Shown: positions 733-58,521 of the stretch, piece by piece
Layout: each line of letters starts with the position of its first letter
How positions within the stretch are numbered: the first letter of the stretch is position 1
Origin: Candidatus Omnitrophota bacterium
GTDB taxonomy: Bacteria; Omnitrophota; Gorgyraeia; Gygaellales; Profunditerraquicolaceae
NCBI GenBank assembly: GCA_025453395.1
Contig: JALOQK010000002.1
Location: forward strand, 85,625 to 149,624
Reading direction: 5' to 3'
Length of the DNA: 64,000 nt
The notes under the pieces: model-generated
The model's input: the letters and a program-made list of their open reading frames with translations, nothing else
What the model was told of the DNA's origin: nothing
Database searches by the model: none
Made by a program: the position numbers and the translations under genes

Positions 733-1194
733 GTGGCAGTGCATAAAGCGGATAAGTTAAATAAAAACGAAAAAGCAAAGAAGTACGCGCTTTTTCTGTT
801 GAAGTTTTCACCGCGCACCAGGCTTGAAATGGTCCGCCGCTTAGAGGCAAAAGGCTTTGCAGCAGATGAAATAAAAGAGGCGCTCAACTTCTTAGAGTCC
901 GGCCAGTATGTAGACGATGCAAAATTTATCCGCTTGTATCTGGGGCAAAAAATAGACAAGCCGGTGCCGTTTGAGAAGATAAGAGAAGCCATTCTTTTAA
1001 AAGGCGTAGAGGAATCTTTTCTTGAAGAAGAATTAAAGAGTAATCCTGTGCCTGCCGAAGAAGAAAGAATATTTAATCTGGCGCAATGGAAATTAGAGAA
1101 AACCCCGGCTTTACAAAAAGAAAGATTAAAAGATTATTTTTTAAGGCAGGGCTTTGATGAATTGGATGTTGACAGGGCAATGGAAAGATTATGA
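733..1194 (+). CDS. recX: RecX-like regulatory protein (GTG start)
   Basis: 153 aa helical-repeat protein; it overlaps the alaS start by 4 nt, and recX-alaS adjacency is a classical synteny. Confidence 0.5.
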   Translation: MAVHKADKLNKNEKAKKYALFLLKFSPRTRLEMVRRLEAKGFAADEIKEALNFLESGQYVDDAKFIRLYLGQKIDKPVPFEKIREAILLKGVEESFLEEELKSNPVPAEEERIFNLAQWKLEKTPALQKERLKDYFLRQGFDELDVDRAMERL

Positions 1195-3824
1195 AAGCGG
1201 ATATTTTAAGAGAAAAATATTTGGATTTTTTTAAATCCAAAAAGCATAAGGTTGTCTTAAGCGATTCTTTGATTCCTGTTGATGACCCTACGGTTTTATT
1301 TACTCCTGCCGGGATGAACCAATTTAAAAAACAATTTATGGGGTTTAACGCAGGTTTTACCCGCGCGGTAAGTTCTCAGCGTTGCCTGCGCACTGATGAC
1401 CTGGATAAAGTGGGGAAAACCGCCGTGCATCATACTTTCTTTGAGATGCTGGGTAATTTTTCTTTTGGCGATTATTTTAAAGATGAGGCGATACAGTGGG
1501 CGTGGGAATTCTTAATTGAAGAATTAAAGATCCCCCAAGAAAGGCTTTGGGTTTCAGTTTACCAAGAGGATAGCGAAGCATATTTAATTTGGAAGGATAA
1601 AGTCGGTATCCCTAAAGAGAGAATTGTGAAGTTAGGCGATCATGATAATTTCTGGCCGGCAGATGCCAAAGAAAAAGGCCCCAACGGCCCCTGCGGCCCC
1701 TGTTCAGAAATATTTTATGACTTTGGAGAAGATGTTGGCTGTGGTGAGAAAGTTTGTGATCCGTCTTGTTCCTGCGGCAGATTTGCCGAGATTTGGAATT
1801 TAGTTTTTACCCAGTATAACCGCAAAGACGGCGGTATCTTGGAACCGTTGCCAAAGAAAAATATTGATACCGGTATGGGCTTGGAGCGCTTGACTGCGGT
1901 AATGCAGGGCGTGAAAAATAATTTCCAGACTGAATTGTTTCAGCCGATTGTTAAAGAAATAGAGGACAGAGGACAGAGGACAGAGGACAGAGAAAAAGAG
2001 AACCTGCTTTACGCGGTAAGCGACCATATTCGTGCTGTAGTTTTCTCAATTTATGACGGGGTTATTCCTTCTAATGAGGCAAGAGGCTATGTAATAAGGA
2101 AAATTATCCGTAAGAGCCTGATGCATCTTAGGGCACTTGAAGTGAAGTTGCCGTTTTTATATAAATTAGTCCCGGTTGTATCGCAGGTAATGCTTAAGCC
2201 TTATCCAGAATTAAGAGAGCGTCAGGAAAATATCACCCAGATAATCTTAAGCGAGGAAAAGGCTTTCATTGCCACTCTTGAAACCAGCGATAAAATATTG
2301 TCCGATAAGTTCTCGGATAAGAAAAACTCCCAAGAAGATATATTAGGTGTTTTGGCCTTTGAGCTTTATGACACAAACGGAGTTCCTTTTGAAATTACTA
2401 AAGATTGGTTGTCTAAAAATAAATTTAGTTTCAAAGAAGAGAAGTTAGAAACTTGTTTTTCTTCCTGTATGGAAGAACAAAAGGCCCGCTCTAAACAAAA
2501 AAGCGCGATGAAGGGAGACGTCTTTGGTTTATCGCACGCGCATTTAGCAGTAAAGAAGACAAACTTTTTGGGGTATAAGAGTTTTTCAGGAACAGCCAAG
2601 TTGCTTAAGATTTTAACTGGCAAAAGCCAAGGAAAGAAAATAAAAGAGGGCGAAGAGGCGGTAGTAATTCTTGATAAGACTTGCTTTTATCCTGAATCTG
2701 GCGGCCAAGTCGGCGACACAGGGCTTATTATTAAGGGTAAGAATATTTTTGAAGTTTTAAGTACGCAAAAAGTGGACAAGGTAATTTTGCATCACGGTAG
2801 AGTTAAAAAGGGAAGTTTCAAGCTTCTTGATCAGGTAACCGCAGAGGTAGACCAGAAGAGGCGTATGGATATTGCCCGTAATCATACTACTACTCATCTT
2901 TTGCAAGCAGCATTAAGAAAAGTGCTGGGTGAGCATATTCGTCAGCAGGGATCTTTAGTTTCAGAAGAAAAATTGCGTTTTGACTTTAGCCACTTTAAAG
3001 CTATAACCGGTGAAGAACTTTCACGCATTGAAGAAGAAGTGAATAAAAATATTCTGGAGGCAGTTTCTTTAGAAGTTAAGGAAATGCCAATTGCTATGGC
3101 CAAGAAAAAAGGGGCATTGGCGTTTTTTGGCGAGAAATATGAGGATAAAGTGCGCATGGTTAGTGTCGCCGATGTGTCGCGCGAGCTTTGCGGCGGGACG
3201 CATCTAGACAATACTGCGCAAGCTGGAAGCTTTAAAATTATCCATGAAAGTTCTGTAGCAAGCGGGGTTAGAAGAATTGAGGCAGTGACTGGTTTAGCTT
3301 CCTATAAGGCTTTTAAGAAAGAGGAAGAGCTTCTTGGAGATCTGGCTCAAACTTTTAATGTGAATCAAGAAAGTTTAAAAATAGCCGCCCAGAAAAGTTT
3401 AGCCCGGGTCAAGGAACTGGAAAAAGAATTAAGCGCTAATAAAATGACTAATCTTAAATCCGGTATTGACCAGATTATAAATAGTGCATGCGAGATAAAT
3501 GGCGTAAAATTTATTGGCGCATCTTTAGATAATCTTGACATACAGCTATTGCGTAAGAATATGGATTTGGTTAAGGAGAAAACCAATAACGCGGTTGTGG
3601 CCTTGGCATCAGCAACAGCCGGTAAAGTATTTTTGGTTATTGGGGTGACCTCGGATATTGCTGGAACAAAATTTGACGCTAATATGATCATTAAACAGGT
3701 GGGGCAATTTATCGGTGGTTCAGGCGGGGGAAGAGCGGATTTTGCCCAAGCAGGCGGCACAAAGCCAGAGAATATAGATTTAGTCTTTGACCAGATTAAG
3801 AAAATAATGGGGAATTTACAATGA
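1191..3824 (+). CDS. alaS: alanine--tRNA ligase
   Basis: 877 aa with class II AlaRS motifs, the editing-domain HxxxH/CGGTH zinc motif and a C-terminal DHHA1 domain; contains an in-frame heptamer repeat insertion at 1963-1990. Confidence 0.95.
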   Translation: MKADILREKYLDFFKSKKHKVVLSDSLIPVDDPTVLFTPAGMNQFKKQFMGFNAGFTRAVSSQRCLRTDDLDKVGKTAVHHTFFEMLGNFSFGDYFKDEAIQWAWEFLIEELKIPQERLWVSVYQEDSEAYLIWKDKVGIPKERIVKLGDHDNFWPADAKEKGPNGPCGPCSEIFYDFGEDVGCGEKVCDPSCSCGRFAEIWNLVFTQYNRKDGGILEPLPKKNIDTGMGLERLTAVMQGVKNNFQTELFQPIVKEIEDRGQRTEDREKENLLYAVSDHIRAVVFSIYDGVIPSNEARGYVIRKIIRKSLMHLRALEVKLPFLYKLVPVVSQVMLKPYPELRERQENITQIILSEEKAFIATLETSDKILSDKFSDKKNSQEDILGVLAFELYDTNGVPFEITKDWLSKNKFSFKEEKLETCFSSCMEEQKARSKQKSAMKGDVFGLSHAHLAVKKTNFLGYKSFSGTAKLLKILTGKSQGKKIKEGEEAVVILDKTCFYPESGGQVGDTGLIIKGKNIFEVLSTQKVDKVILHHGRVKKGSFKLLDQVTAEVDQKRRMDIARNHTTTHLLQAALRKVLGEHIRQQGSLVSEEKLRFDFSHFKAITGEELSRIEEEVNKNILEAVSLEVKEMPIAMAKKKGALAFFGEKYEDKVRMVSVADVSRELCGGTHLDNTAQAGSFKIIHESSVASGVRRIEAVTGLASYKAFKKEEELLGDLAQTFNVNQESLKIAAQKSLARVKELEKELSANKMTNLKSGIDQIINSACEINGVKFIGASLDNLDIQLLRKNMDLVKEKTNNAVVALASATAGKVFLVIGVTSDIAGTKFDANMIIKQVGQFIGGSGGGRADFAQAGGTKPENIDLVFDQIKKIMGNLQ
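1963..1990 (+). repeat. heptanucleotide microsatellite (GAGGACA)x4, in-frame inside alaS (encodes EDRGQRTEDR)
   Basis: Four perfect tandem heptamers read directly from the sequence. Confidence 0.9.
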
Positions 3825-5057: not shown

Positions 5058-5675
5058 TTGAATATGAAAAAAAGAAATGCTAGTGTAAAAAGAAGTTCGC
5101 GGGAGACGCAGATAGATATTAAGTTGGTGCTTGATGGCGATGGAAATTCCAAGATTGACACCGGCATTGGCTTGTTGGATCACATGCTGGAGTTATTTGC
5201 TTTTCACGGTTTTTTTGATTTGACGATTAAAGCAAAGGGTGATCTTAAAGTGGACATCCATCACACCAACGAAGATATCGGCATTGTTTTGGGGGATGCT
5301 TTTAAAAAAGCCCTGGGCGATAAGAAGGCCTTGCGCAGGTTTGGATCGTCGTCTGTGCCGATGGAAGATGTAGTCTCGCAGGTGGTGGTAGATATAAGCG
5401 GCAGAGGATTCTTTAATGGTATAGAGGGTAAAATTACGCAGGACGCTAAATTAAAAAATACCCAAGGTTATTCCTTTGAGTATGCAAATCATTTTTTTGA
5501 AGCCTTTGCAAAAAGGTTGGGGGTAAATTTAAGTATTAAGCTTTCAAGCGATAATGTGGATTTACACACTAACTTAGAGCCTGTGTTTAAAGCATTCGGC
5601 ATTGCCCTTGACATGGCCACTCAAATTGAGCCGCGCAGAAAAGGCGTCCCTTCCACAAAAGGAATTATTGACTAA
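5058..5675 (+). CDS. hisB: imidazoleglycerol-phosphate dehydratase
   Basis: 205 aa; IDTGIGLLDHML and histidine-rich metal-binding motifs. Confidence 0.93.
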   Translation: MNMKKRNASVKRSSRETQIDIKLVLDGDGNSKIDTGIGLLDHMLELFAFHGFFDLTIKAKGDLKVDIHHTNEDIGIVLGDAFKKALGDKKALRRFGSSSVPMEDVVSQVVVDISGRGFFNGIEGKITQDAKLKNTQGYSFEYANHFFEAFAKRLGVNLSIKLSSDNVDLHTNLEPVFKAFGIALDMATQIEPRRKGVPSTKGIID

Positions 5676-6284: not shown

Positions 6285-6488
6285 AAATAGTTTTAAGTAG
6301 TATAGTAATATATCATTTAGCTAAAAACCATAATTAAAAATTCAAAGTTTTAAATTTTACGCTGTGATTTTACGTTTTGCACTTTTAGCTTTACATTATA
6401 CAATGTATTTTTAATTTTACGCTATAGTTTTACGCTTTTCGCTTTACGCTTTTAGCTTATAACTTATAGCTTACAGCTTACAGCTAAT
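6285..6488. repeat. intergenic repeat element, copy A of the ~66 bp unit family (TTTTAATTTTACGCTATAGTTTTACGCTTTTCGCTTT..CAATGTATTTTTA), about two units plus an AGCTTACA octamer tail
   Basis: Near-identical units are also present at 8942-9136 and 10949-11070. Confidence 0.85.
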
Positions 6489-7211
6489 ATGCTAATTATC
6501 CCAGCAATAGACATTAAAGACGGCGCGGTAGTCAGGCTCTTGCAGGGCAAGTTTGACAAGAAGACTGTTTATTCTAAAGATCCGCTTAAAACCGCGAAGC
6601 ATTGGCAAAAACAGGGCGCCAGCGTCATTCATATTGTTGACCTTGACGGAGCAAACAGCGGGCAGTCTGTAAATTTGCCGATTGTCAAAGAGATTGTGAA
6701 AAATACAGAAGTAAAGATAGAGTTTGGCGGAGGTTTGCGCAGCCTAAGGGCGATAGAAGCAATTCTTGATGCTGGAATTTGGCGGGTGGTTTTGGGGACT
6801 CGCGCTGCCGAGGATAAAGAATTCCTTAAAGGCGCCTTTTCTAATTTTAAAGATAAGGTTATTGTCAGTGTTGATGCTAAAGACGGCGAAGTCTTAACCC
6901 GCGGCTGGGAAAAGCACAGCGGAATTACAGTCTTGGATTTTGTTGCCCAGTTAAAGGCAATAGGTTTTAAAAATTTAATCTTTACGGATACCTCTAAAGA
7001 CGGTATGCTAAAGGGGCCTAATCTTAAGGCGGTCAAAGAGCTTCTTAAAAAAAGCGGGCTAAAGATTGTGGCTTCCGGAGGCATAACCGCGCTTTCGGAT
7101 CTGGTGAAATTGCGCGCCCTAGAAAAAGACGGCGTGGAAGCTGTTATTATTGGCAAGGCCTTGTATGAGGGGAAGTTTACATTACAACAAGCGTTAAGAA
7201 GTCAAAAGTAA
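6489..7211 (+). CDS. hisA: 1-(5-phosphoribosyl)-5-[(5-phosphoribosylamino)methylideneamino]imidazole-4-carboxamide isomerase
   Basis: 240 aa (beta/alpha)8 HisA protein, N-terminus MLIIPAIDIKDG; its last codons lie in the AAGTCAAAAGTAAA repeat array. Confidence 0.92.
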   Translation: MLIIPAIDIKDGAVVRLLQGKFDKKTVYSKDPLKTAKHWQKQGASVIHIVDLDGANSGQSVNLPIVKEIVKNTEVKIEFGGGLRSLRAIEAILDAGIWRVVLGTRAAEDKEFLKGAFSNFKDKVIVSVDAKDGEVLTRGWEKHSGITVLDFVAQLKAIGFKNLIFTDTSKDGMLKGPNLKAVKELLKKSGLKIVASGGITALSDLVKLRALEKDGVEAVIIGKALYEGKFTLQQALRSQK

Positions 7212-7253
7212 AAAGTCAAAAGTAAAAAGGTAAAAGTAAAAAGTAAAAGACAA
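7197..7253 (+). repeat. tandem array of 14-mer (AAGTCAAAAGTAAA-like, 2x7) x4, overlapping the hisA stop codon
   Basis: Read directly from the sequence; the same AAGTCA-type heptamer recurs inside hisF. Confidence 0.85.
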
Positions 7254-7300: not shown

Positions 7301-7768
7301 ATGAGAAAAGTTTTAGGTTTGGGGTTAGCATTAGTGGGTGTTTTAGCTTTAAGCGGCTGTTCCACAGTCTGCAGAAAACAAGTTAATCAGATAAATGAGC
7401 TAAAAAGCCAGGTGTCTTCGCTAAAATCAGAAATACAGTATAAGGATGATCAGATAACCCAGCTGCGTTATTCTGTTAGTCAGGCGCCGAGTGAAAAGTT
7501 TGTTGCGTCGCAAGCCGCGGTTTCTATGGGGGCAGCTATTCCTGAAGTGAAATCCCGCCCTAAGGCAAAGCAGATACAGGCTGCCTTGAAGAATGCTGGC
7601 TATTATAACGGGCCCGTTGATGGGAAAATCGGCAAAAGGACAAGAAAAGCTATCCGCAACTTTCAGAAAGATAATGGCCTGCAGGTGGATGGCAAAGTCG
7701 GCAAGGATACTTGGGCAAAGCTAAAGAATGCTCCGGAAAAGAAAGTAAGCGAGCAGAAAGTAAAATAA
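7301..7768 (+). CDS. lipoprotein with C-terminal peptidoglycan-binding (PG_binding_1-like) domain
   Basis: Signal peptide plus lipobox LSGC, a coiled-coil middle, and a C-terminal segment (YNGPVDGKIGKRTRKAIRNFQKDNGLQVDGKVGKDT) typical of PG-binding domain 1. Confidence 0.7.
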   Translation: MRKVLGLGLALVGVLALSGCSTVCRKQVNQINELKSQVSSLKSEIQYKDDQITQLRYSVSQAPSEKFVASQAAVSMGAAIPEVKSRPKAKQIQAALKNAGYYNGPVDGKIGKRTRKAIRNFQKDNGLQVDGKVGKDTWAKLKNAPEKKVSEQKVK

Positions 7769-7795: not shown

Positions 7796-7836
7796 AGCTG
7801 ATAGCTGATAGCTGATAGCTGATAGCTGATAGCTGA
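7796..7836 (+). repeat. heptanucleotide microsatellite (AGCTGAT)x5 plus a partial unit, intergenic
   Basis: Perfect tandem heptamers read directly from the sequence. Confidence 0.95.
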
Positions 7837-7841
7837 AAAAC

Positions 7842-8615
7842 ATGTTAACTAAACGTATTATTCCCTGTTTAGACATCAAAGACGGCAGGGTAGTCAAGGG
7901 CGTGCGTTTTTTGGGGCTTCGCGATGCCGGGGATCCTGTGGAAGTGGCCCAGGCCTACGATAAACAGGGCGCGGATGAATTAGTATTTCTGGATATTACC
8001 GCGAGTTTTGAGAATCGCAAGACGCTGGTTTCTCTGGTAGAGAAAATCGCGCAAAATATCTATATGCCTTTTACTGTTGGAGGCGGGATAAGAAGCATTG
8101 AGGATATACGCGATCTTTTAAATGCCGGCGCAGATAAGGTGTCCATAAATACTGCGGCAGTAAAATTTCCTGATCTAGTTAGCGATTCGGCCAGGCGTTT
8201 TGGCAGCCAGTGTATAGTAGTAGCGATAGACGCGAAGTCAGAAGTCAGAAGTCAGAAGTCAGAGGTTAGAAAGTGGGAAGTGTATATAAACGGGGGAAGA
8301 ACTCCCACCGGCATTGACGCGGTAGAATGGGCAAAAAAAGTAGAAGAAGCAGGCGCCGGAGAAATACTTCTAACCAGTATGGATTATGACGGCACAAAAG
8401 ACGGCTATGATCTAAAGCTGACAAAGGCGGTCACAGGCGCAGTTAATATTCCGCTAATTGCTTCAGGAGGCGCGGGTACTTGTGAGCATATAAGCGATGT
8501 TTTTTTAAAGGCTGGCGCGGATGCCGCTTTAGCAGCTTCTGTTTTTCATTATCAGGAATTAACCGTGAAACAAGTTAAGCAATATTTAAGAACGAAAGGC
8601 GTAGCAGTAAGATGA
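7842..8615 (+). CDS. hisF: imidazole glycerol phosphate synthase cyclase subunit
   Basis: 257 aa HisF; carries a repeat-encoded insertion [13 protein letters not shown] in the loop before WEVY. Confidence 0.93.
8235..8269 (+). repeat. heptanucleotide microsatellite (GAAGTCA)x4 plus a degenerate unit, in-frame inside hisF
   Basis: Read directly from the sequence. Confidence 0.9.
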
Positions 8616-8941
8616 ATAAAAAATTGTACTTGAAAGATCTGAAATTTGATGATAAGGGTTTGATTCCGGCGATTGTGCAGGATTATAAGACTAATGAAGT
8701 CTTGATGGTGGCTTATATGAATTTGGAGTCTGTAAAAAGAACACTAAAGTCCGGCAAGACTTGCTTCTGGTCGCGTTCGCGTAAAGAATACTGGGTCAAA
8801 GGCATGACTTCCGGGCATTTCCAATTTGTAAAATCCGTTTGGTATGATTGCGATATGGATGCGCTTTTGGTAAAGGTGCGCCAGGTGGGCGCTGCCTGCC
8901 ATACAGGGAACAGGTCGTGTTTTTATAGGAGAATCAAGTAA
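8612..8941 (+). CDS. hisI: phosphoribosyl-AMP cyclohydrolase
   Basis: 109 aa with the CHTGxxSCF zinc motif. Confidence 0.9.
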
Positions 8942-9136
8942 GCGAAAAGCGTAAAGCGAAAAACGCAAAACCATAATTTAAAATTCAAAATTTTTAATTT
9001 TACGCTATAGTTTTACACTTTTCGCTTTTAGCTTTACACTCTGCAATGTATTTTTAGTTTTTAATTTTGCACTGTAGTTTTACGTTTTTCGCCTTTAGCT
9101 TTACACTCTGCAATGTATTTTTAGTACTCTTAAGAT
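8942..9136. repeat. intergenic repeat element copy B: GCGAAAAGCG-rich arm, AAAATTCAAAATT motif, then two tandem ~66 bp units
   Basis: Units at about 8993-9058 and 9059-9124 are near-identical; the upstream arm is a reverse-complement match to the TTTTCGCTTTACGC cores. Confidence 0.85.
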
Positions 9137-10696: not shown

Positions 10697-10948
10697 ATGG
10701 CAGTTAATGTAAGGTTAAGAAGAATAGGAAAAAGGCCCAAGAACCGGGCGCATTTTAGAATTGGCGTTTATGACCAGAGAAGAGGCAGAGATGACCGGCC
10801 TATCGAAGAAATAGGTTTTTATAATCCCGGATCCGGGCAGATCAAGATTGATCTTGAGCGTTTAGGGTATTGGGTGAAAAACGGCGCTCAGCTTTCTAAT
10901 ACGGTCGCCAGCATTTTTAAAAAACAATCAAAAGCAGTTAAAGCATAG
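10697..10948 (+). CDS. rpsP: 30S ribosomal protein S16
   Basis: 83 aa with a typical S16 N-terminus (MAVNVRLRRIGKR). Confidence 0.93.
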   Translation: MAVNVRLRRIGKRPKNRAHFRIGVYDQRRGRDDRPIEEIGFYNPGSGQIKIDLERLGYWVKNGAQLSNTVASIFKKQSKAVKA

Positions 10949-11070
10949 AAGCGCAAAACGCAAAGCGAAAAATTTAAAACTATAATTCAAAATTAAAAAG
11001 TTTTTAATTTTACGCTATAGTTTTACGCTTTTCGCTTTTAGTTTTACGCTAACGTTAAGGAGGATGTTAA
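10949..11070. repeat. intergenic repeat element copy C (GCAAAACGCAAAGCGAAAA arm, AAAATTCAAAATT motif, one truncated ~66 bp unit)
   Basis: Shares a unit of 50 bp or more with copies A and B. Confidence 0.85.
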
Positions 11071-35874: not shown

Positions 35875-36708
35875 ATGGGTATAAAAAAATTCAGGCCCAC
35901 AAGTCCGTCACGGCGCTGGATCACTGGTCCGGATTTTACTGAGATTACTAAGGATTATCCCGAGAAGTCGCTTGTAACTGTTTTAAAGAGGACAGGCGGC
36001 AGAAATTCAAGCGGCCGTTTGACTGTCAGGCACCAGGGTGGCGGGCACAAACGTAAATTGCGCTTGATTGATTTTAAGCGCGATCTTTTGGATAAGCCGG
36101 CAAAAGTCCTTGCTATTGAGTACGATCCGAATCGTTCGGCAAGGCTGGCTTTAGTTGAATACCAGCCAAACCAGAAAAGATATATCATCGCTCCTCTAGG
36201 ATTAAATGTGGGAGATCAGATTGTTTCTTCAAATGACAAAGAAACAGAAATCAAGGTTGGCAATTGTTTGGTTTTGCGTTATATCCCTTCAGGCACGCTC
36301 ATTCATAATATTGAAATCCGCCCGGGCAAAGGCGCGCAGATTGTAAGAAGCGCTGGTTCAAGCGCGCAGATTATGGCCAAAGAAGGCGATTACGCGCATG
36401 TGCGTTTGCCTTCAGGCGAAGTGCGCTTAATAAGTTTAGACTGCCATGCGGTTATTGGGCAGGTGGGCAATGTTGAGCATGAAGCCATTTCTGTTGGCAA
36501 GGCCGGCCGTTCCCGTTGGATGGGTATTCGCCCGACAGTAAGAGGATTAGCCATGAATCCGGTTGACCATCCGCATGGCGGAGGCGAAGGAAAATCAGGG
36601 CAGGGTAATCCTCATCCAGTGTCCCCATGGGGCCAGCCGACTAAGGGTTACAAAACCAGGAAACCAAAGCGATATTCTAATAAATTTATAGTTAAAAGAA
36701 GAAAGTAA
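35875..36708 (+). CDS. rplB: 50S ribosomal protein L2
   Basis: 277 aa L2 with the conserved C-terminal block ([14 protein letters not shown]). Confidence 0.96.
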
Positions 36709-36711
36709 TTT

Positions 36712-36800
36712 AAAATTAAAAATGAAAAATCTAAAATTAAAATCTTTAGGAAATGGTTTTAAGGTAAATTTTGAATTTTTACTTTTTAATTTTGAATTTC
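36712..36800. mobile_element. ~89 bp AT-rich miniature inverted-repeat element (MITE-like): left arm AAAATTAAAAATGAAAAATCTAAAATTAAAAT, right arm reverse complement GAAATTCAAAATTAAAAAGTAAAAATTCAAAATTTAC, no cargo
   Basis: Imperfect ~30 bp terminal inverted repeats read from the sequence; sits in a 135 bp rplB-rpsS spacer of the S10 operon. Confidence 0.45.
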
Positions 36801-36843
36801 AACGAGCGTCTTTTAGTTTAATAAGTGTAAAAGCGAGGAAGAC

Positions 36844-37131
36844 ATGCCGCGTTCATTAAAGAAGGGCCCGTATATTGACGAGAAATTATTAAAGAAAGTT
36901 GACCGCGCGCGCCGCTCGGGGCAGCGCACCGCGATAAAGACCTGGGCAAGGCGTTGCACGATCACCCCGGATTTTGTGGGCCTGACTTTTGCTGTGCATG
37001 ACGGCCACAGGCATTTACCGGTTTTTGTCACCGAGAATATGGTAGGGCATAAATTAGGGGAATTCGCTCCCACCCGCGTATTTCGTAAGCATGGCGGGGT
37101 TAAAGCCAAAAAAGCAGCGGAAAAGACTTAA
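36844..37131 (+). CDS. rpsS: 30S ribosomal protein S19
   Basis: 95 aa S19. Confidence 0.95.
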
Positions 37132-43050: not shown

Positions 43051-44421
43051 ATGATAGCTAATACCTTTAACTTCAGCCCATTAATCAACAGCTTTCGCAT
43101 TCCGGATCTAAAAAAGCGCCTTTGGGTTACTCTGGGCCTTTTGGCTGTTTATCGCATGGGTTGTTATTTGCCTATTCCCGGGATTGACGGGATAGCGTTA
43201 GCGGAATTTATCAGTCAAATCTCCAAGTCTTCTGGTGGAGCGCTCTTTGGCATTATTAATATGTTTTCCGGCGGCGCCATGGAGAGGCTGACCATTTTTG
43301 CTTTGGGGATCATGCCGTATATCTCCAGCTCCATTATTTTGCAGCTTTTGACTGCGGTTATCCCGGCATTAGAAAAGCTGGCCAAAGAAGGAAAAGCCGG
43401 TTATCAAAAAATAAATCAGTTTACCCGTTATGGAACGGTAGTCTTGGCAGTTATACAATCATTTTTTATCGCCAAGTGGCTTGAGGGTTTGGGCAGGACC
43501 ATGCAGGATATGCCCAAGATTGTTTTAGCTCCGGGCTTGGGTTTTGAACTTTTAACAGTTTTAACTCTTACTACCGGAACGATTTTCTTGATGTGGCTGG
43601 GCGAGCAGATACAGGAGCGCGGCATCGGTAACGGCATATCGCTTGTTATTACAGCCGGTATTGTCTCGCGTATCCCGGCTGCCTTTCATCAGCTTTTTGT
43701 TTTATTGTCGCCCTTTAATCCCACTCGGCGGCAGCTGCAGCCGGCGGTATTACTGCTGATGGTTTTTCTTTTAGCGGCGGTAGTTTTCGCGGTTATACTT
43801 GTTACCCAGGGGCAGAGAAGGATCCCTGTGCAGTATGCCCGAAGAGTAGTAGGGCGAAAGGTTTTCGGAGGGCAGAGCACCTATATCCCCCTTAAGGTAG
43901 ACACATCAGGGGTTATCGCGATCATTTTTGCGCAGTCCATAATACTTTTTCCGGCGACTCTGGCATCATTCATACCGAATCCTGCGTTTCAGGGTTTTGC
44001 GCATGCTTTAACCCGCGGCAATGTCGGGTATTCTATAGTTTACGCTCTTTTAATTATATTCTTCTGCTATTTTTACACCGCGGTTGTTTTTAATCCGGTG
44101 GACTTAGCCGATAACATGAAAAAATACGGCGGGTTTATTCCGGGTATCCGCCCGGGAGTTTCAACCGCGGAATTCTTAGATTACACCATGACCCGTATTA
44201 CTTTGGCAGGCGCGCTATTTATCGCCTTTGTGGCGATATTCCCTGACGCGTTAATGGCATGGCTAAAGGTGCCGTATCTTGTCGCGTCATTTTTCGGCGG
44301 CACAGGCGTTCTTATTATCGTGGGGGTTATGCTGGATACGATCAAACAGCTTGAATCGCATTTGATGATGCATCACTACGAGGGTTTTATCAAAGGCGCA
44401 AGGATTAAGGGAAGAAGATAA
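43051..44421 (+). CDS. secY: preprotein translocase subunit SecY
   Basis: 456 aa with 10 TM segments and conserved SecY blocks. Confidence 0.96.
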   Translation: MIANTFNFSPLINSFRIPDLKKRLWVTLGLLAVYRMGCYLPIPGIDGIALAEFISQISKSSGGALFGIINMFSGGAMERLTIFALGIMPYISSSIILQLLTAVIPALEKLAKEGKAGYQKINQFTRYGTVVLAVIQSFFIAKWLEGLGRTMQDMPKIVLAPGLGFELLTVLTLTTGTIFLMWLGEQIQERGIGNGISLVITAGIVSRIPAAFHQLFVLLSPFNPTRRQLQPAVLLLMVFLLAAVVFAVILVTQGQRRIPVQYARRVVGRKVFGGQSTYIPLKVDTSGVIAIIFAQSIILFPATLASFIPNPAFQGFAHALTRGNVGYSIVYALLIIFFCYFYTAVVFNPVDLADNMKKYGGFIPGIRPGVSTAEFLDYTMTRITLAGALFIAFVAIFPDALMAWLKVPYLVASFFGGTGVLIIVGVMLDTIKQLESHLMMHHYEGFIKGARIKGRR

Positions 44422-44741
44422 AAATTAAAAATTCAAAATTAAAAATTAAGAAATAAAAGCAAAAAGATAAAAGCAAAAAGATAAAAGCAAAAAATATAGT
44501 AGTAAAAAAATTTAGTTATTTGCTCATTGGTAAATCAAATTTTCTTTTAAAGCTCAATAATTATTTATTTTTTATATTCTTAGGTTTTTAAATTTGAGAT
44601 TTTAGGTTTTTGTTTTAATTTTTTATTTTAAATTTTAAATTAACAACAGTGTTTTTTTTGATTTTAATGTTTTCTAATTTTGTTTTTATGTTTTTAATTT
44701 TGCATTTTTCATTTTAAACTTTAAATTAAAGAGGGTTTCTT
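44422..44741. repeat. 320 bp AT-rich noncoding element: left end AAAATTAAAAATTCAAAATTAAAAATT, a 14-mer tandem (ATAAAAGCAAAAAG)x3, right end reverse complement AATTTAAAGTTTAAAATGAAAAATGCAAAATTAAAA
   Basis: Seen in sequence; the ends resemble the terminal inverted repeats of the 36712-36800 element. Confidence 0.45.
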
Positions 44742-51991: not shown

Positions 51992-52062
51992 CACCCGGCG
52001 CAATTTGATGCGCCGGTGCGCAATTATCAGGCAACACCCGGCGCAATTTGATGCGCCGGTGT
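51992..52062 (+). other. two tandem copies (43 bp period) of a GC-rich hairpin CACCCGGCGCA-ATTTGA-TGCGCCGGTG between the dehydratase large-subunit gene and pilT
   Basis: 8 bp perfect stems with 6 nt loops read from the sequence; the second is followed by a pyrimidine-rich stretch. Confidence 0.55.
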
Positions 52063-52086
52063 GCCCTTTCTGGGCAAGGAGGACTA

Positions 52087-53133
52087 ATGGAAATTAGGGA
52101 TCTTTTATTGCAGTGTATTGAAACCAAATCATCAGATCTGCACTTGACTGAAAATGAGCCTCCGCTTTTACGTATTGACGGACGCATCAATCGCACCAAA
52201 AGTAGTATTCTGGGCAGAGACGATCTTAAGAAAATGATCTATAGTATTTTGACCAGCGCCCAGAAAGAAGTGTTTGAGCGCGACCTGGAGCTGGATTTAT
52301 CATTGGCGCTTCCCGGATTAGACAGGTTCCGGGTGAATGTGCATTTGCAGAAGGGTTCTGTGGAAGCAGCCTTTCGCCGTGTGCCTCTGGATATCCCCAG
52401 TATTCAGGATTTGGGCCTGCCGCCAATAGTTTTTGATCTGGCGCGCAAACCCAACGGTTTATTTTTAGTTACCGGGCCAACCGGAGTAGGTAAGACCACA
52501 ACTTTAGCCGCGATAATTGATTTGATCAATTCCGAGCGCGAATGTTTGATGATGACCATAGAAGACCCGATAGAATTTATCCACGCGAATAAGAAAAGCG
52601 TGATCAAGCAGAGGGAAGTTTACGCGGATACGCGTTCTTTTGCCGAAGCGCTTAAGCATACATTGCGCCAGGACCCTAATGTTATTGTGGTTGGCGAAAT
52701 GCGCGATCTGGAAACTATCTCTACAACTTTGACTGCCGCGGAAACAGGGCACTTGGTATTGGCAACTTTACATACCCCTGATGCTCCGCAGACCATTCAA
52801 AGAATTATAGACGTATTCCCTCCGCATCAACAGCAACAGGTTAAATTACAGCTTGCCGACTGTTTGCAAGGAGTTGTCTCGCAGTTATTGCTGCCCAAAG
52901 CTGACGGGCACGGAAGAGTGCTTGCCACAGAGATAATGGTTGCCACCGCTGGTATCCGTAATCTTATCCGCGAGCAGGAAGTTGAGCAGGTCCCGACACT
53001 TATTCAGACCGGGAGCCAATTCGGGATGAAGACCATGGATAAATGTCTGAAAGAATTATTCCAGCAGGGGCTTATTTCTTTGGACACTGCCATGTCTAAA
53101 GTCAAGAACGTGGAAGAATTCAAGCATCTTTAA
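52087..53133 (+). CDS. pilT: type IV pilus retraction (twitching motility) ATPase PilT
   Basis: 348 aa; start MEIRDLL is preceded by an AAGGAGG RBS. Walker A GPTGVGKTTT, Asp box VGEMRD and His box ATLHT are present. The ORF track's 52048 start is upstream and in-frame. Confidence 0.88.
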   Translation: MEIRDLLLQCIETKSSDLHLTENEPPLLRIDGRINRTKSSILGRDDLKKMIYSILTSAQKEVFERDLELDLSLALPGLDRFRVNVHLQKGSVEAAFRRVPLDIPSIQDLGLPPIVFDLARKPNGLFLVTGPTGVGKTTTLAAIIDLINSERECLMMTIEDPIEFIHANKKSVIKQREVYADTRSFAEALKHTLRQDPNVIVVGEMRDLETISTTLTAAETGHLVLATLHTPDAPQTIQRIIDVFPPHQQQQVKLQLADCLQGVVSQLLLPKADGHGRVLATEIMVATAGIRNLIREQEVEQVPTLIQTGSQFGMKTMDKCLKELFQQGLISLDTAMSKVKNVEEFKHL

Positions 53134-53147
53134 AAAGGAGAGTTTCT

Positions 53148-53648
53148 TTGCGTTTAGAAGGAAAGGCCATAAAGTTAGGCGATGATATCAACACGGATTT
53201 TATTATTTCCGGCCGCTACAAATTCGCCATTACCGATATGAAAGAATTGGCCAAGCATATTATGGAAGATATCGACCCAGCATTCCCATCCAAGATTACG
53301 CCCGGTCAATCTATCCTGGTTGCTGGAAGAAATTTCGGCATGGGCTCATCGCGCGAGCAGGCGCCATTGGTAATAAAAGAATCCGGAATAATTGCTGTGG
53401 TTGCTAAATCTTTTGCCAGGATATTTTATCGTAACGCTTTTAATATAGGATTAGCCCTGGTGGAATTGGATACTGATAAAATAAAAGAAGGCGACGCCTT
53501 AGATATTGATTTAGATAAAGGCGCTGCCAGGAATGTTTCATCCGGCGTTGATTTTAAAATCTCCCCCTTGCCGGAATTCATGCAAGCTCTTTTACGCGAA
53601 GGCGGAGTGGTAAATTACGTTAAAAAGTATGGCGAGTTAGAAATTTAG
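53148..53648 (+). CDS. aconitase-superfamily dehydratase small subunit, LeuD/HacB type
   Basis: 166 aa type-2 LeuD-like protein (swivel domain). Confidence 0.85.
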   Translation: MRLEGKAIKLGDDINTDFIISGRYKFAITDMKELAKHIMEDIDPAFPSKITPGQSILVAGRNFGMGSSREQAPLVIKESGIIAVVAKSFARIFYRNAFNIGLALVELDTDKIKEGDALDIDLDKGAARNVSSGVDFKISPLPEFMQALLREGGVVNYVKKYGELEI

Positions 53649-53695
53649 AATTAAAAAATAAAAATTCAAAATTAAAATACAAAATGCTGGTATAA

Positions 53696-54076
53696 TTGCT
53701 AATGGAAAATAAAGGGGCAAGTTTTCAGAGTAATTATGATATAAAAAACAGGACCTACGCTTTCTCGGTTAGTATTGTTAATTTTGTTTCTGATTTACCA
53801 AAAGATAACGCAACTCACATTATTTCTAATCAATTGTTGGCTAGTGCTACAAGTGTAGGTGCTAATGTTATTGAAGCGCAAGCATCAAGTTCACGCAAAG
53901 ATTTTACAAATTTCTTGAATCATTCTTTGAAATCAGGAAATGAGACAAAATATTGGCTATGTTTGTTACGGGATACTGGCAGAGCCGAATATCCTAAAGT
54001 CAGCAAGCTTATTAATGAAGTAACTGAAATTAATAATATACTTGGAAAAAGCATTATTACTTTACGTAATAAGTAG
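53696..54076 (+). CDS. four-helix-bundle protein (TIGR02436-like; '23S rRNA intervening-sequence protein' family)
   Basis: 126 aa; the segment SNQLLASATSVGANVIEAQASSSRKDFTNFLNHSLKSGNETKYWLCLLRD matches the family's hallmark. Confidence 0.75.
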   Translation: MLMENKGASFQSNYDIKNRTYAFSVSIVNFVSDLPKDNATHIISNQLLASATSVGANVIEAQASSSRKDFTNFLNHSLKSGNETKYWLCLLRDTGRAEYPKVSKLINEVTEINNILGKSIITLRNK

Positions 54077-54124
54077 CATTTATGTTTTTAATTTCTAATT
54101 TTTAATTTTTCATTTTTAATTCCT

Positions 54125-55216
54125 ATGCCCTACACCATTACTCTTATCCCAGGCGACGGAATTGGCCCGGAAGTAGCCAGGGCCGCGCAAGCTTGTATTG
54201 ACGCAACCGGTGTTAAGATAAGCTGGGATCAGGCGCAAGCCGGCCAAGACGCCTTAGAGCAATGCGGGGAACTTCTTCCTGAAGCCACCCTTTCATCTAT
54301 CAAAAAAAATAAAATTGCATTAAAAGGTCCGATCACCACTCCTATTGGAAAAGGTTTCCGCTCGGTGAATGTGGCTATTCGTCAGGCTTTGGATCTTTAC
54401 GCCTGCGTGCGTCCGGCAAAATCGTATCCGGGGGTAAAAAGCCTGTATAAAGATATCAATCTGGTGATTGTGCGCGAGAACAGCGAAGACCTTTACGCCG
54501 GTATTGAATTTGAGCAGGGCAAGCCCGAGACCGAAGAGCTTATCAAAAAAATAGATTCCTATAGTGTTAAGAAAATCCGCCCTGATTCAGGCATTTCCAT
54601 TAAACCCATTTCGCTTTATGCCGCCGAAAGGATCGTAAAGTTTGCTTTTGAATACGCCTTGGCAAATAACCGCAAGAAAGTCACCTGTGTGACTAAAGCC
54701 AATATCATGAAATATACCGACGGGCTTTTTCTGGCGGCGGCAAAGGGGGTTGCTCAAAGCTATGAAGGCAGGGTATTATTTGAAGAGGCCCTGGTGGATA
54801 ATATGGCAATGCAGCTTGTGCAAAGGCCGCACTATTATGATGTGCTGGTGCTTCCTAATCTTTATGGGGATATTCTTTCGGATCTTTGCGCTGGATTAAT
54901 CGGAGGTTTAGGAATTGCTCCGGGAGCCAATATCGGAGAAAAGATAGCGGTATTTGAGGCAGTGCACGGCTCTGCTCCTAAATACGCTGGTTTGAATAAA
55001 GTCAACCCTAGCGCGATGATCTTGTCCGGGGTTTTGATGTTGCGCCATCTTGGAGAAAATGAAGCTGCCAACCGCTTGGAACACGCCTTAAGCGCAGTAC
55101 TTAAAGAAGGCAGATTTGTTACCTATGATTTAAAACCGCATCGCGATGACCCTTCGGCAGTGGGCACAAAACAAATGGCAGAAGCGGTAATAAGAAAGTT
55201 ACATGAGGTTACGTGA
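54125..55216 (+). CDS. beta-decarboxylating dehydrogenase of the isocitrate/homoisocitrate/isopropylmalate family; substrate-site motif [18 protein letters not shown] resembles the isocitrate/homoisocitrate type more than LeuB
   Basis: 363 aa with [10 protein letters not shown] and a Ser-containing substrate loop. Confidence 0.8.
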
Positions 55217-55222
55217 GGTTAA

Positions 55223-55660
55223 GTGATGTTACATCAGGTTGCTAAAAGCACAGTATCAAAAACAGCGCCTTATGAAAAACTCAAGTTTTATCAGGATATT
55301 TGCCAGATTCGCAAGTTAACCTATCAAATAACAGAGAATATTGTTCGTTCACATATGCGTTTAGCTTCTCAGATGAGAGATGCCGCGCGTTCTGCTAAGC
55401 AAAATCTAAGAGAAGGATATCGCAAAGGCACATTAGGAGAATTTATACATAGCATAAAGATAAGTCAGGGGTCTTTAGCAGAGTTAAGTGGCGACATGGA
55501 AGATTGCTTGGAAGACGGTATTATTCAGAAAACTGATTTTGATATTTTTATGAAGCTTTATCGTAGTGCAGACTATATGTCAAATAGGTATTTAATTTCG
55601 TTATATAAGATAGAAAAAGAAGGCACATGGCGCACTTTCGCTAAGCGTAGTGCTAAATAG
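55223..55660 (+). CDS. four-helix-bundle protein (TIGR02436-like), second paralog
   Basis: 145 aa (YEKLKFYQ.., GSLAEL..) of the same family as 53696-54076. Confidence 0.7.
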   Translation: MMLHQVAKSTVSKTAPYEKLKFYQDICQIRKLTYQITENIVRSHMRLASQMRDAARSAKQNLREGYRKGTLGEFIHSIKISQGSLAELSGDMEDCLEDGIIQKTDFDIFMKLYRSADYMSNRYLISLYKIEKEGTWRTFAKRSAK

Positions 55661-55664
55661 TCTT

Positions 55665-55828
55665 CCTGATTGTTGAATATTGTTTTTGCTCTTTGTTTCT
55701 AAGCAACCTCATTTAACATTATGTAACTTTATGCAACCTCATTTAACCTGATTGTTGAATATTGTTTTTGCTCTTTGTTTCTAAGCAACCTCATTTAACA
55801 TCATGTAACTTTATGCAACCTCATTTAA
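55665..55828 (+). repeat. 82 bp direct tandem duplication (2 copies, 1 mismatch) plus a partial third start; each unit contains two GCAACCTCATTTAAC sub-repeats
   Basis: Read directly from the sequence. Confidence 0.95.
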
Positions 55829-55839
55829 CCTGATTTTCT

Positions 55840-58034: not shown

Positions 58035-58265
58035 ATGATTGAAGTTAAACTTCCAGAGTTGGGCGAGGGGATCAAGCAGGCTACAGTTTCTTACTGGTTT
58101 TTTCAGGAAGGGCAAGCTGTAAAAGAAAAAGAAGAATTAGTTGAACTTACTACCGACAAAGCCACTTTTAATCTTCCCAGTCCGGCAAGCGGAGTATTAA
58201 AACAGGTGCTTATTAAGGAAGGCGAAACCATCGCCATCGGCACCGTCTTGGCAATAATATCGTAG
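58035..58265 (+). CDS. free-standing lipoyl/biotinyl attachment domain protein (resembles an E2 N-terminal lipoyl domain; possibly a truncated E2)
   Basis: 76 aa with the lipoyl-lysine motif TDKAT; the stop codon lies inside the left terminal inverted repeat of the downstream element. Confidence 0.7.
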   Translation: MIEVKLPELGEGIKQATVSYWFFQEGQAVKEKEELVELTTDKATFNLPSPASGVLKQVLIKEGETIAIGTVLAIIS

Positions 58266-58506
58266 ACGCTTTAGCTAACCCCATGTAGCACAATAACTTA
58301 TGAAACAAATACGCCATAGAAAAGGGGCACTTTGCCTTTCTGCCCCGAAAGGGCGCACTTGGCATTCATTTTTGCCAAGGTGCAATAGGCAAAGGTGCGT
58401 CCCAGTAATTAGCGTACTTTGCCTTCCTGTGATTTTAGTTTTTTAAACCCTACCCATATTTGTTTTGTAATCTTTTGTGTGGCATAGTATTAGCTAAAGC
58501 GTCTAC
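58263..58506. mobile_element. 244 bp element bounded by perfect 17 bp inverted repeats (GTAGACGCTTTAGCTAA / TTAGCTAAAGCGTCTAC) with an internal ~80 nt GC-rich extended hairpin (58324-58403); MITE or structured ncRNA
   Basis: Inverted repeats and nested complementary blocks (GGGGCACTTTGCC..GGCAAAGGTGCGTCCC; GCGCACTTGGCA..TGCCAAGGTGCA) read from the sequence. Confidence 0.55.
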
Positions 58507-58521
58507 AATGAATTATTTTAC

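Follow-up and report, generated by a model that had tools for sequence, protein, structure and literature searches.

What is an inverted repeat doing between two ribosomal protein genes that normally almost touch each other? The question is raised by the S10 operon of a Candidatus Omnitrophota bacterium (GenBank assembly GCA_025453395.1, contig JALOQK010000002.1), where, in the stretch of 64,000 nucleotides analyzed here (positions 85,625 to 149,624 of the forward strand; hereafter the window), the rplB and rpsS genes lie 135 bp apart and the spacer holds an AT-rich hairpin that we call E1. [quoted passage not shown] Here, we find that arms of the same kind enclose genes of the PF05635 family, best known from the intervening sequences (IVSs) of 23S rRNA, and we hold with moderate confidence that E1 is a member, devoid of an open reading frame (ORF), of an IVS-type family of hairpin cassettes living in mRNA operons. 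E1 is not a classical MITE, because neither a transposase nor a target-site duplication was found, and the term applies to it only in a loose descriptive sense. The element is of interest because its locus links rRNA IVSs, PF05635/Avd-like proteins, and heptanucleotide arrays.

The element of about 89 bp was correctly placed and described by the original prediction, as were its imperfect inverted repeats of about 30 bp. The arms (36707-36738 and 36767-36798) are 32 nt long, 84% complementary, and have 28 nt between them. Both are built of tandem heptamers, and the best period of the left arm is 7, with an autocorrelation of 0.79. The spacer and its flanks, with periods from Tandem Repeats Finder, read as follows:

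35875-36708, + strand: rplB, ribosomal protein L2 (Pfam Ribosomal_L2_N and L2_C)
36707-36743, + strand: E1 left arm, A-rich, about 5.4 tandem heptamers AATTTAA/AAAATNN (period 7)
36744-36764, + strand: E1 loop or core, without an ORF
36765-36802, + strand: E1 right arm, T-rich, about 4.7 tandem heptamers AATTTTG (period 7)
36803-36843, + strand: linker from E1 to rpsS, with a Shine-Dalgarno (SD)-like GAGGAAG at 36835-36841
36844-37131, + strand: rpsS, ribosomal protein S19 (Pfam Ribosomal_S19)

The rplB stop codon (TAA, 36706-36708) shares bases with the start of the left arm, and comparison with relatives indicates that the C-terminus of the protein (...KFIVKRRK, then the stop) is intact. The spacer is identical base for base in an independent assembly, Logan SRR12684589, which excludes an assembly artefact. 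Folded alone, the E1 hairpin reaches -19.5 kcal/mol (z = -3.7), and one of 200 shuffles folds equally well. No terminator-like site was found on the + strand between 36300 and 37200, E1 having an AU-only stem in place of a GC-rich one and no U tract, and a promoter scan of the spacer gave only the matches expected from AT-richness and no convincing promoter. Rfam returned no match to the E1 spacer at the gathering threshold or at E <= 10 and nothing better than E 3.7 for 36600-36900; over the whole window only two tRNAs reach the gathering score, and there is no rRNA. Two candidate features of the spacer were rejected: a 45-aa ORF (36722-36859), which the A/T arrays produce incidentally and which runs into the rpsS start, and a fourU-like mini-hairpin sequestering the SD sequence (36808-36843), which folds no better than shuffles (z = -0.6).

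E1 is one of several such hairpins in the window. A 27-mer arm consensus, with up to 3 mismatches allowed, has six matches in the window against 0.00 expected in shuffles, and the six resolve into three inverted pairs (36712/36767, 44421/44696, and 53647/54097). The prediction of a dispersed family is thereby upheld, as is the statement that the motif also brackets the secY-adk element and the first of two four-helix-bundle genes, which correspond to the second and third pairs:

44415-44729, + strand: E2, a long copy without an ORF that fills the secY-adk spacer (flanks: SecY, ADK)
53638-54125, + strand: E3, a cargo-bearing copy that fills the leuD-leuB gap exactly
53702-54076, + strand: IVP1, the cargo of E3, encoding a 124-aa four-helix-bundle protein (PF05635 23S_rRNA_IVP, E 6.8e-21)

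The outer arms of E2 (44415-44465 and 44671-44721; 51 nt, 76%) contain nested A-rich and T-rich heptamer arrays between them, and those of E3 (53638-53688 and 54075-54125) are likewise 51 nt long, at 78%. E1 and E3 match at 35 of 43 positions in the left arm and 29 of 36 in the right; the three elements are alignable within their arms only, and similarity vanishes beyond them. IVP1 is identical to database protein P0001 and also matches TIGR02436, "four helix bundle protein" (E 2.2e-24), and PDB 2rld (E 2.2e-19). E1 is cargo-less, as proposed, in the sense that it has no ORF while the same arms bracket the IVP1 gene, and tblastn with IVP1 detected no remnant of that gene in E1 or E2. The sequence TGGTATAAT (53688-53704), an extended -10 box, stands 5 nt ahead of the IVP1 ATG, without an SD sequence, and suggests that the IVP1 mRNA may be leaderless; it was rejected as an IVP1-specific promoter, the box not being conserved in homologous cassettes.

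To place the S10 insert among its relatives, 80 loci were retrieved with the L2 protein, and about 20 Omnitrophota S10 loci were scanned for inverted repeats. The genes rplB and rpsS are -1 to 13 bp apart in L004-L016, the 13 closest Omnitrophota relatives that lack the insert (retrieved loci carry L numbers), and 0-14 bp apart in other Omnitrophota-type loci, in keeping with the premise of the original prediction that the two genes are normally almost contiguous (-1 to 14 bp in about 20 Omnitrophota). In relatives without the insert, the rpsS SD sequence lies within the last rplB codons (empty junctions L004 and L005). Judged against these junctions, the long rplB-rpsS spacer is the derived state. 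In the comparison with orthologous S10 operons that the prediction had proposed, the insert is absent from about 20 Omnitrophota, and the closest relative, L003 (L2 79% identical), shares a hairpin at this junction. Among the S10 loci scanned, hairpins are present in the window and in L003 alone, in both at rplB-rpsS. The L003 spacer is 122 bp long and consists of an A-rich/T-rich hairpin with 7-nt periodic arms, whose unit (AAATCCA/AAATGNC) is unlike that of E1. Their right junctions are conserved (TTTGAATTT.ACGA.CG), and in both an SD sequence stands between hairpin and rpsS start (GAGGAAG in the window, GGGAGGA in L003). Probably a single old insertion took place in the common ancestor of the window lineage and L003 and was followed by turnover of the arms; the alternative is independent insertion in the two lineages at a hot spot. 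The E1 insertion is probably not recent: the hairpin of L003 also has heptamer arms, lies at the same junction, and shares the right boundary. L003 has, in addition, an array of (NAGTAGT) x4.4 at 5242-5272, within the rpsS-rplV spacer and immediately upstream of the SD sequence of rplV; the corresponding junction of the window measures 23 bp only.

The nature of the family is indicated by its cargo. We surveyed IVP1 homologues (50-63% identical) in their own contigs, PF05635 genes in loci found by a motif scan (described below), and the two such genes of the window, IVP1 and IVP2, the latter in a cassette of its own:

55195-55835, + strand: second cargo cassette, after leuB, with the IVP2 gene at 55223-55660 (PF05635/TIGR02436)

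IVP1 homologues that carry a source name are from Omnitrophota or Patescibacteria. Of 11 independent PF05635 genes examined, drawn from the window and from other metagenomic contigs, 10 have inverted arms on either side; bracketed genes are IVP1 and IVP2 of the window and those of L104, L130, L179, L187, L205, L206, L210, L212, and L214, and the exception is the gene of L209. The autocorrelation maximum lies at 7 nt in 16 of 17 arm pairs, whatever the heptamer unit (AAAATTN, AAAGCGN, AAGATTA, ATTTACG, or AGGATTT). Typically, the left arm reaches the start codon of the IVP gene and the right arm begins at or within its stop codon. Several of the bracketed genes lie between co-oriented genes of an operon, as in lepA-IVP-lepB (L206), leuD-IVP-leuB (L212), and nuoA-IVP-nuoB (L104). 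Hairpins without an ORF accompany cargo-bearing copies in L212 (11462-11579), with the same arms as the nearby copy, and in L214 (2019-2209), where the unit is of the AAAAGTA type and that of the cargo copy of the AAGATTA type.

The ends of these units are sharp. L206 and L212 derive from the same metagenome and have their cassettes at unrelated loci; the arms are about 90% identical and the IVP coding sequences about 78%, and the similarity stops abruptly at the outer arm ends. As judged from this comparison, the cassettes are discrete units with sharp ends. A scan of metagenomes with a degenerate arm pattern gave at least 120 loci (the window's own contig is not among the matches listed), about 19 of which have an inverted partner; most of the remainder are either solo arrays or AT-rich DNA that has nothing to do with the family. 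Since the motif of the arms is a 7-nt tandem of low complexity, matches to it alone over-call membership; the motif search suggested by the original prediction gave further pairs within the window and mostly noise in the metagenomes. Among the matches listed, AT-only (AAAATTN)n hairpins without an ORF were found in contigs of 59-62% GC (L102, L142, and L145), which excludes an origin by local compositional drift; by this measure, the cassette family occurs in hosts of very different base composition.

Three observations on individual loci may be added. In L104 (892-1414) and L179 (4117-5943), the arms around the IVP gene stand in the opposite order, T-rich before A-rich, and this reversed polarity is independent of strand and hence a real difference. 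Successive genes of L179 are separated by A-rich and T-rich arrays in alternation, and neighbors share arms. The IVP gene of L212 (10001-10354), a contig that resembles Omnitrophota, occupies the same leuD-to-dehydrogenase junction as IVP1 of the window (53702-54076), and the two IVP sequences are 60% identical, above the flanking LeuD (52%) and dehydrogenase (34%); from these sequences, vertical inheritance and repeated insertion of leuD-IVP-leuB cannot be separated.

A full-length cassette comprises a left arm of about 5-7 heptamers, a PF05635/TIGR02436 gene directly after it, and a complementary right arm starting from the stop codon, and the cassettes here are placed exactly between a stop codon and the start of the next gene in co-oriented operons. 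On our reading, E1 would have entered, or shrunk to a bare stem, directly after the rplB stop codon. With all genes on the + strand and neither a terminator nor a convincing promoter, it is presumably co-transcribed with the S10 polycistron, and its transcript may fold into an AU-rich stem of about 35 bp. The stem of at least 22 bp has a length compatible with RNase III and, by analogy with IVS stems and Correia elements, would be a plausible substrate of that enzyme, which might split the mRNA between rplB and rpsS. Translation of rpsS would then start from the new SD sequence 3' of the stem, not from an SD sequence inside the rplB end. E1 itself would be a near-neutral selfish element.

The closest parallel is found in rRNA. 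The Coxiella 23S rRNA IVS is 428 nt long, with an inverted-repeat stem that is cut by RNase III and an S23p ORF of the PF05635 family in sense orientation, and its 5' arm contains tandem heptamers (GACAGAT) in 2-3 copies depending on the strain (PMC4990558). IVSs without an ORF are known, and IVP ORFs have been reported in rRNA insertions of candidate phyla radiation (CPR) bacteria (PMC11270868); IVSs are regarded as selfish and possibly mobile, by a mechanism that is not known (PMC4990558, PMC11270868). The cassettes resemble the 23S IVSs of Coxiella, Leptospira, and Salmonella in having a stem that encloses either nothing or a sense PF05635 ORF, in the size of the ORF-bearing forms (about 430-490 nt), in the heptamers of the arm, and in the coexistence of ORF-bearing and ORF-less forms; E1, without an ORF, resembles the Salmonella type. 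However, 23S IVSs are located in helix 25 or 45 of 23S rRNA and are removed by RNase III with no religation afterwards, whereas the cassettes of the window and the other contigs lie in spacers of mRNA operons (S10, secY-adk, leu, his, lepA-lepB, nuoA-nuoB). Cleavage, which we infer here from the stem, would thus cut a polycistronic mRNA instead of fragmenting rRNA.

Other repeat families share some of these traits. Like the Correia elements (CREE, nemis) of Neisseria and the ERIC/RU-type MITEs of enterobacteria, the ORF-less copies are short inverted repeats that lie in operon spacers and form hairpins. Those elements are co-transcribed and have defined terminal inverted repeats with a TA target duplication and no heptamer periodicity, and they differ from the cassettes in lacking a PF05635-bearing full-length form. 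Another parallel is offered by the REP, BIME, and REPIN sequences, palindromes between the genes of operons, which can influence how an mRNA is processed and how stable it is. REPs have GC-rich stems of 20-40 nt and are mobilized by RAYT (Y1) transposases. In contrast, the arms here are long (32-51 nt), AT-rich, and heptamer-periodic, and no RAYT gene was seen near the cassettes, where no systematic RAYT search was made. For hairpin repeats without an ORF that lie in mRNA and are cut by RNase III, Correia elements are the precedent, since that enzyme binds and cleaves them (PMC2649163).

Beggiatoaceae, Cyanobacteria, and Bacteroidetes have been reported to contain heptamer arrays, which lie immediately upstream of start codons or overlap ORF ends and are also present in ribosomal protein operons (PMC4679880). 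Their patchy distribution suggests horizontal spread; the arrays were not given a mechanism and were not connected with PF05635 (PMC4679880). These short tandemly repeated repetitive (STRR)/TAACTGA arrays share with the cassettes a 7-nt unit in few-copy arrays, but they are direct arrays, with one inverted case only (MacGregor), whereas the cassettes have complementary inverted pairs around a gene or core. The cargo protein belongs to the same four-helix-bundle superfamily as Avd of the diversity-generating retroelements (PMC10053308) and has a weak match to NF033474; neither a reverse transcriptase nor a template/variable repeat pair was seen next to any cassette examined. One IVP gene, located between cmr3 and cmr2, had earlier been interpreted as cas-associated (PMC3936711); it conforms to the pattern of the present cassettes. 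A full-text search of the literature, with most subscription journals outside its coverage, gave no description of PF05635 genes as cargo of heptamer-arm hairpin cassettes in operons.

Several findings weigh against reading E1 as an IVS-type cassette. No transposase or recombinase was found in the cargo-bearing copies or in the 64 kb of this genome covered, and the ends of E1, E2, E3, L206, and L212 lack a consistent target-site duplication, so that any mobility of the cassettes is left without a mechanism. Mismatches in the stems are not biased toward RNA pairing on the sense strand (G·U 37 vs. A·C 42 in 19 arm pairs), and the lack of a G·U excess means that there is no sign of selection on sense-RNA structure. 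About 71% identity between any two (AAAATTN)n arrays comes free, and with such low-complexity arms homology of E1-E3 beyond the shared unit is unprovable. As there is no gene remnant in E1, deletion of a cargo and insertion as a bare stem are indistinguishable. Finally, the heptamer unit of L003 differs at the same site, which requires either arm turnover or independent insertion. As to the ends, a possible ATATRAA repeat was seen at L206 and none at L212 or E3; the similarity of the rplB end to the new SD sequence and of the secY end to the adk SD sequence was rejected as a duplication, since purine-rich Lys/Arg codons and SD sequences suffice to explain it. The complementarity of the stems may operate at the level of DNA, either as termini recognized during insertion or as the product of fold-back synthesis.

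The main rival is that heptanucleotide microsatellites arose in situ by replication slippage, in the manner of long simple-sequence repeats and the STRR of cyanobacteria, that no unit was inserted, and that the hairpin is an incidental juxtaposition of complementary arrays. Slippage certainly operates in this genome and probably shapes the arms after insertion: perfect heptamer arrays occur inside genes (AGAGGAC, 1961-1992), others stand alone upstream of start codons (AGCTGAT, 7796-7836), and L003 has its separate array in the rpsS-rplV spacer. Elsewhere, heptamers are the commonest long simple repeats in many prokaryote genomes and have been ascribed to slippage, TAACTGA arrays of 2-6 copies precede start codons in ribosomal protein operons as well (PMC4679880), and the heptamer copy number of the Coxiella IVS varies among strains (PMC4990558). 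As a full account of E1, however, slippage seems unlikely to us, because it leaves unexplained how complementary arrays came to match in length and register around a gene or short core, why homology between unrelated loci ends sharply at the outer arm ends, and how AT-only arms arose in hosts of about 60% GC. It is less likely again that E1 is a selected cis-regulatory RNA of the S10 operon, tuning the rplB-distal genes by processing, stability, attenuation, or as a thermosensor. A hairpin is indeed kept at rplB-rpsS in the two closest lineages though the arm sequence differs, and a new SD sequence follows it in E1; but it is absent from about 20 other Omnitrophota, is not terminator-like, has no Rfam match at the thresholds given above, and has the same arms as hairpins at unrelated operons and around a selfish-looking gene. 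The balance of G·U and A·C mismatches on the sense strand and the failure of the SD mini-hairpin to exceed shuffles also speak against it.

Two explanations remain. A classical MITE would be a deletion derivative of a transposase-encoding insertion sequence, mobilized through its terminal inverted repeats, and the non-autonomous MITE of the original prediction survives as far as the inverted repeats, small size, several copies, and intergenic positions are concerned. However, the partner element encodes a PF05635 protein and not a known transposase: eleven cargo-bearing copies have no transposase inside or adjoining them, and their cargo is always PF05635. Given also that there is no consistent target-site duplication and that the purine-rich similarity of the flanks is explained by Lys/Arg codons and SD constraints, we consider this origin extremely improbable. 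Alternatively, the heptamer arrays might be iterated binding sites of a ring-forming four-helix-bundle protein, with E1-like hairpins as orphan operators by way of which the protein would act in trans on transcripts or DNA of the host. The arrays cluster at about 5-6 units, arm units are alike within the same window or metagenome and different between contigs, and Avd, a homologue in the IVP superfamily (to which the NF033474 match is weak), is an accessory protein of diversity-generating retroelements that handles nucleic acids. The solved structure of the family is a homopentameric toroid (PMC4990558, citing Lin 2006; PDB 2rld, 5 chains). This support is purely correlative, though, and common descent of arms and gene predicts the same pattern; moreover, copy numbers of 2-8 also occur, and the window holds three arm types but two IVP genes only. 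We regard the binding-site explanation, like the regulatory one, as quite improbable, and retain the IVS-type cassette as the probable identity of E1.

It has been unexplained for some 30 years where rRNA IVSs come from and how they move, what the S23p/IVP protein, a homologue of Avd, does, and why heptanucleotide arrays are scattered in cyanobacteria, Beggiatoaceae, and Bacteroidetes. The present locus suggests that these are facets of one element type. Taken to its full extent, the idea would be that PF05635 genes are the cargo of widespread, undescribed mobile hairpin cassettes, of which the rRNA IVS is a special case that landed in rRNA; ORF-less hairpins, and perhaps orphan STRR/TAACTGA-type arrays, would be their derivatives or footprints, and the pentameric protein would recognize arrays of about five units. 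We offer this as a tentative and still doubtful generalization. If it is true, the element inserts precisely between operon genes, essential ribosomal operons included, and decays to bare stems, and "four helix bundle protein" genes, which are very common in Omnitrophota, Patescibacteria, and other phyla, would be annotated and interpreted differently, including genes called cas-associated (PMC3936711).

The window contains further hairpins of a related kind. Three his-region repeats (6328, 8971, and 10977) had been assigned to the motif of E1; they fall outside the arm consensus even with 3 mismatches allowed and have a distinct second arm type, in which just two or three AAAATTN units occur, at the hairpin tip:

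6348-6452, + strand: two solo right arms of the second type, in the hisH-hisA spacer
8941-9125, + strand: ORF-less hairpin of the second type, (AAAGCGN)n/(TTTTNGC)n, in the hisI-trpE spacer
10950-11050, + strand: ORF-less hairpin of the second type, upstream of yajC, with 50-nt arms, 80% complementary, and a 1-nt loop

No left-arm partner was detected for the solo arms in the hisH-hisA spacer. The right arm of the hisI-trpE hairpin is tandemly duplicated at 8991-9125 (67-bp unit x2.0, 91% identity). Upstream of the hairpin at 10950-11050 is a short unannotated ORF (about 10698-10947), a candidate rpsP. The AAAGCGN arm type also brackets IVP genes in L205, L206, L210, and L212. The arms of the IVP2 cassette differ from those of E3: they have a 10-nt period (GTTACRTGAG; left arm 55195-55243), and the right arm is duplicated (55702-55747 and 55784-55829) within an 82-bp unit x2.1 of 98% identity (55665-55835), so that this cassette and the hisI-trpE hairpin each have one left arm and two alternative right arms. 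Tandem repeats of the window are dominated by period-7 arrays, whose density in the window and in loci with an IVP gene is several times that of S10 loci outside Omnitrophota.

Some arrays lie within or between genes without forming hairpins. AGAGGAC x4.6 (100% matches, 1961-1992) is inside an 877-aa ORF (1191-3824) that, from its length, is presumably alaS-like, and GAAGTCA x5.4 (90% matches, 8234-8271) is inside hisF; both encode short inserted peptides, such as ...EDRGQRTEDRE.... A PG_binding_1 gene (7301-7768) interrupts the his operon between hisA and hisF and has solo, mutually non-complementary arrays on either side (7195-7248 and 7796-7836), of which the TAAAAAG x7.7 array follows hisA and the perfect AGCTGAT x5.9 array (7796-7836) stops just ahead of the start codon of hisF. 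A further inverted repeat (58259-58311 and 58457-58509; 53 nt, 77% complementarity), situated between a biotin-lipoyl gene and an HTH_17 gene, surrounds 145 nt that are richer in GC; it lacks heptamer periodicity, and Rfam gave no match to it. Finally, the leu cluster is oddly interrupted by a T2SSE-family ATPase gene (52048-53133) between leuC, encoding the aconitase large subunit, and leuD, in addition to its two IVP cassettes.

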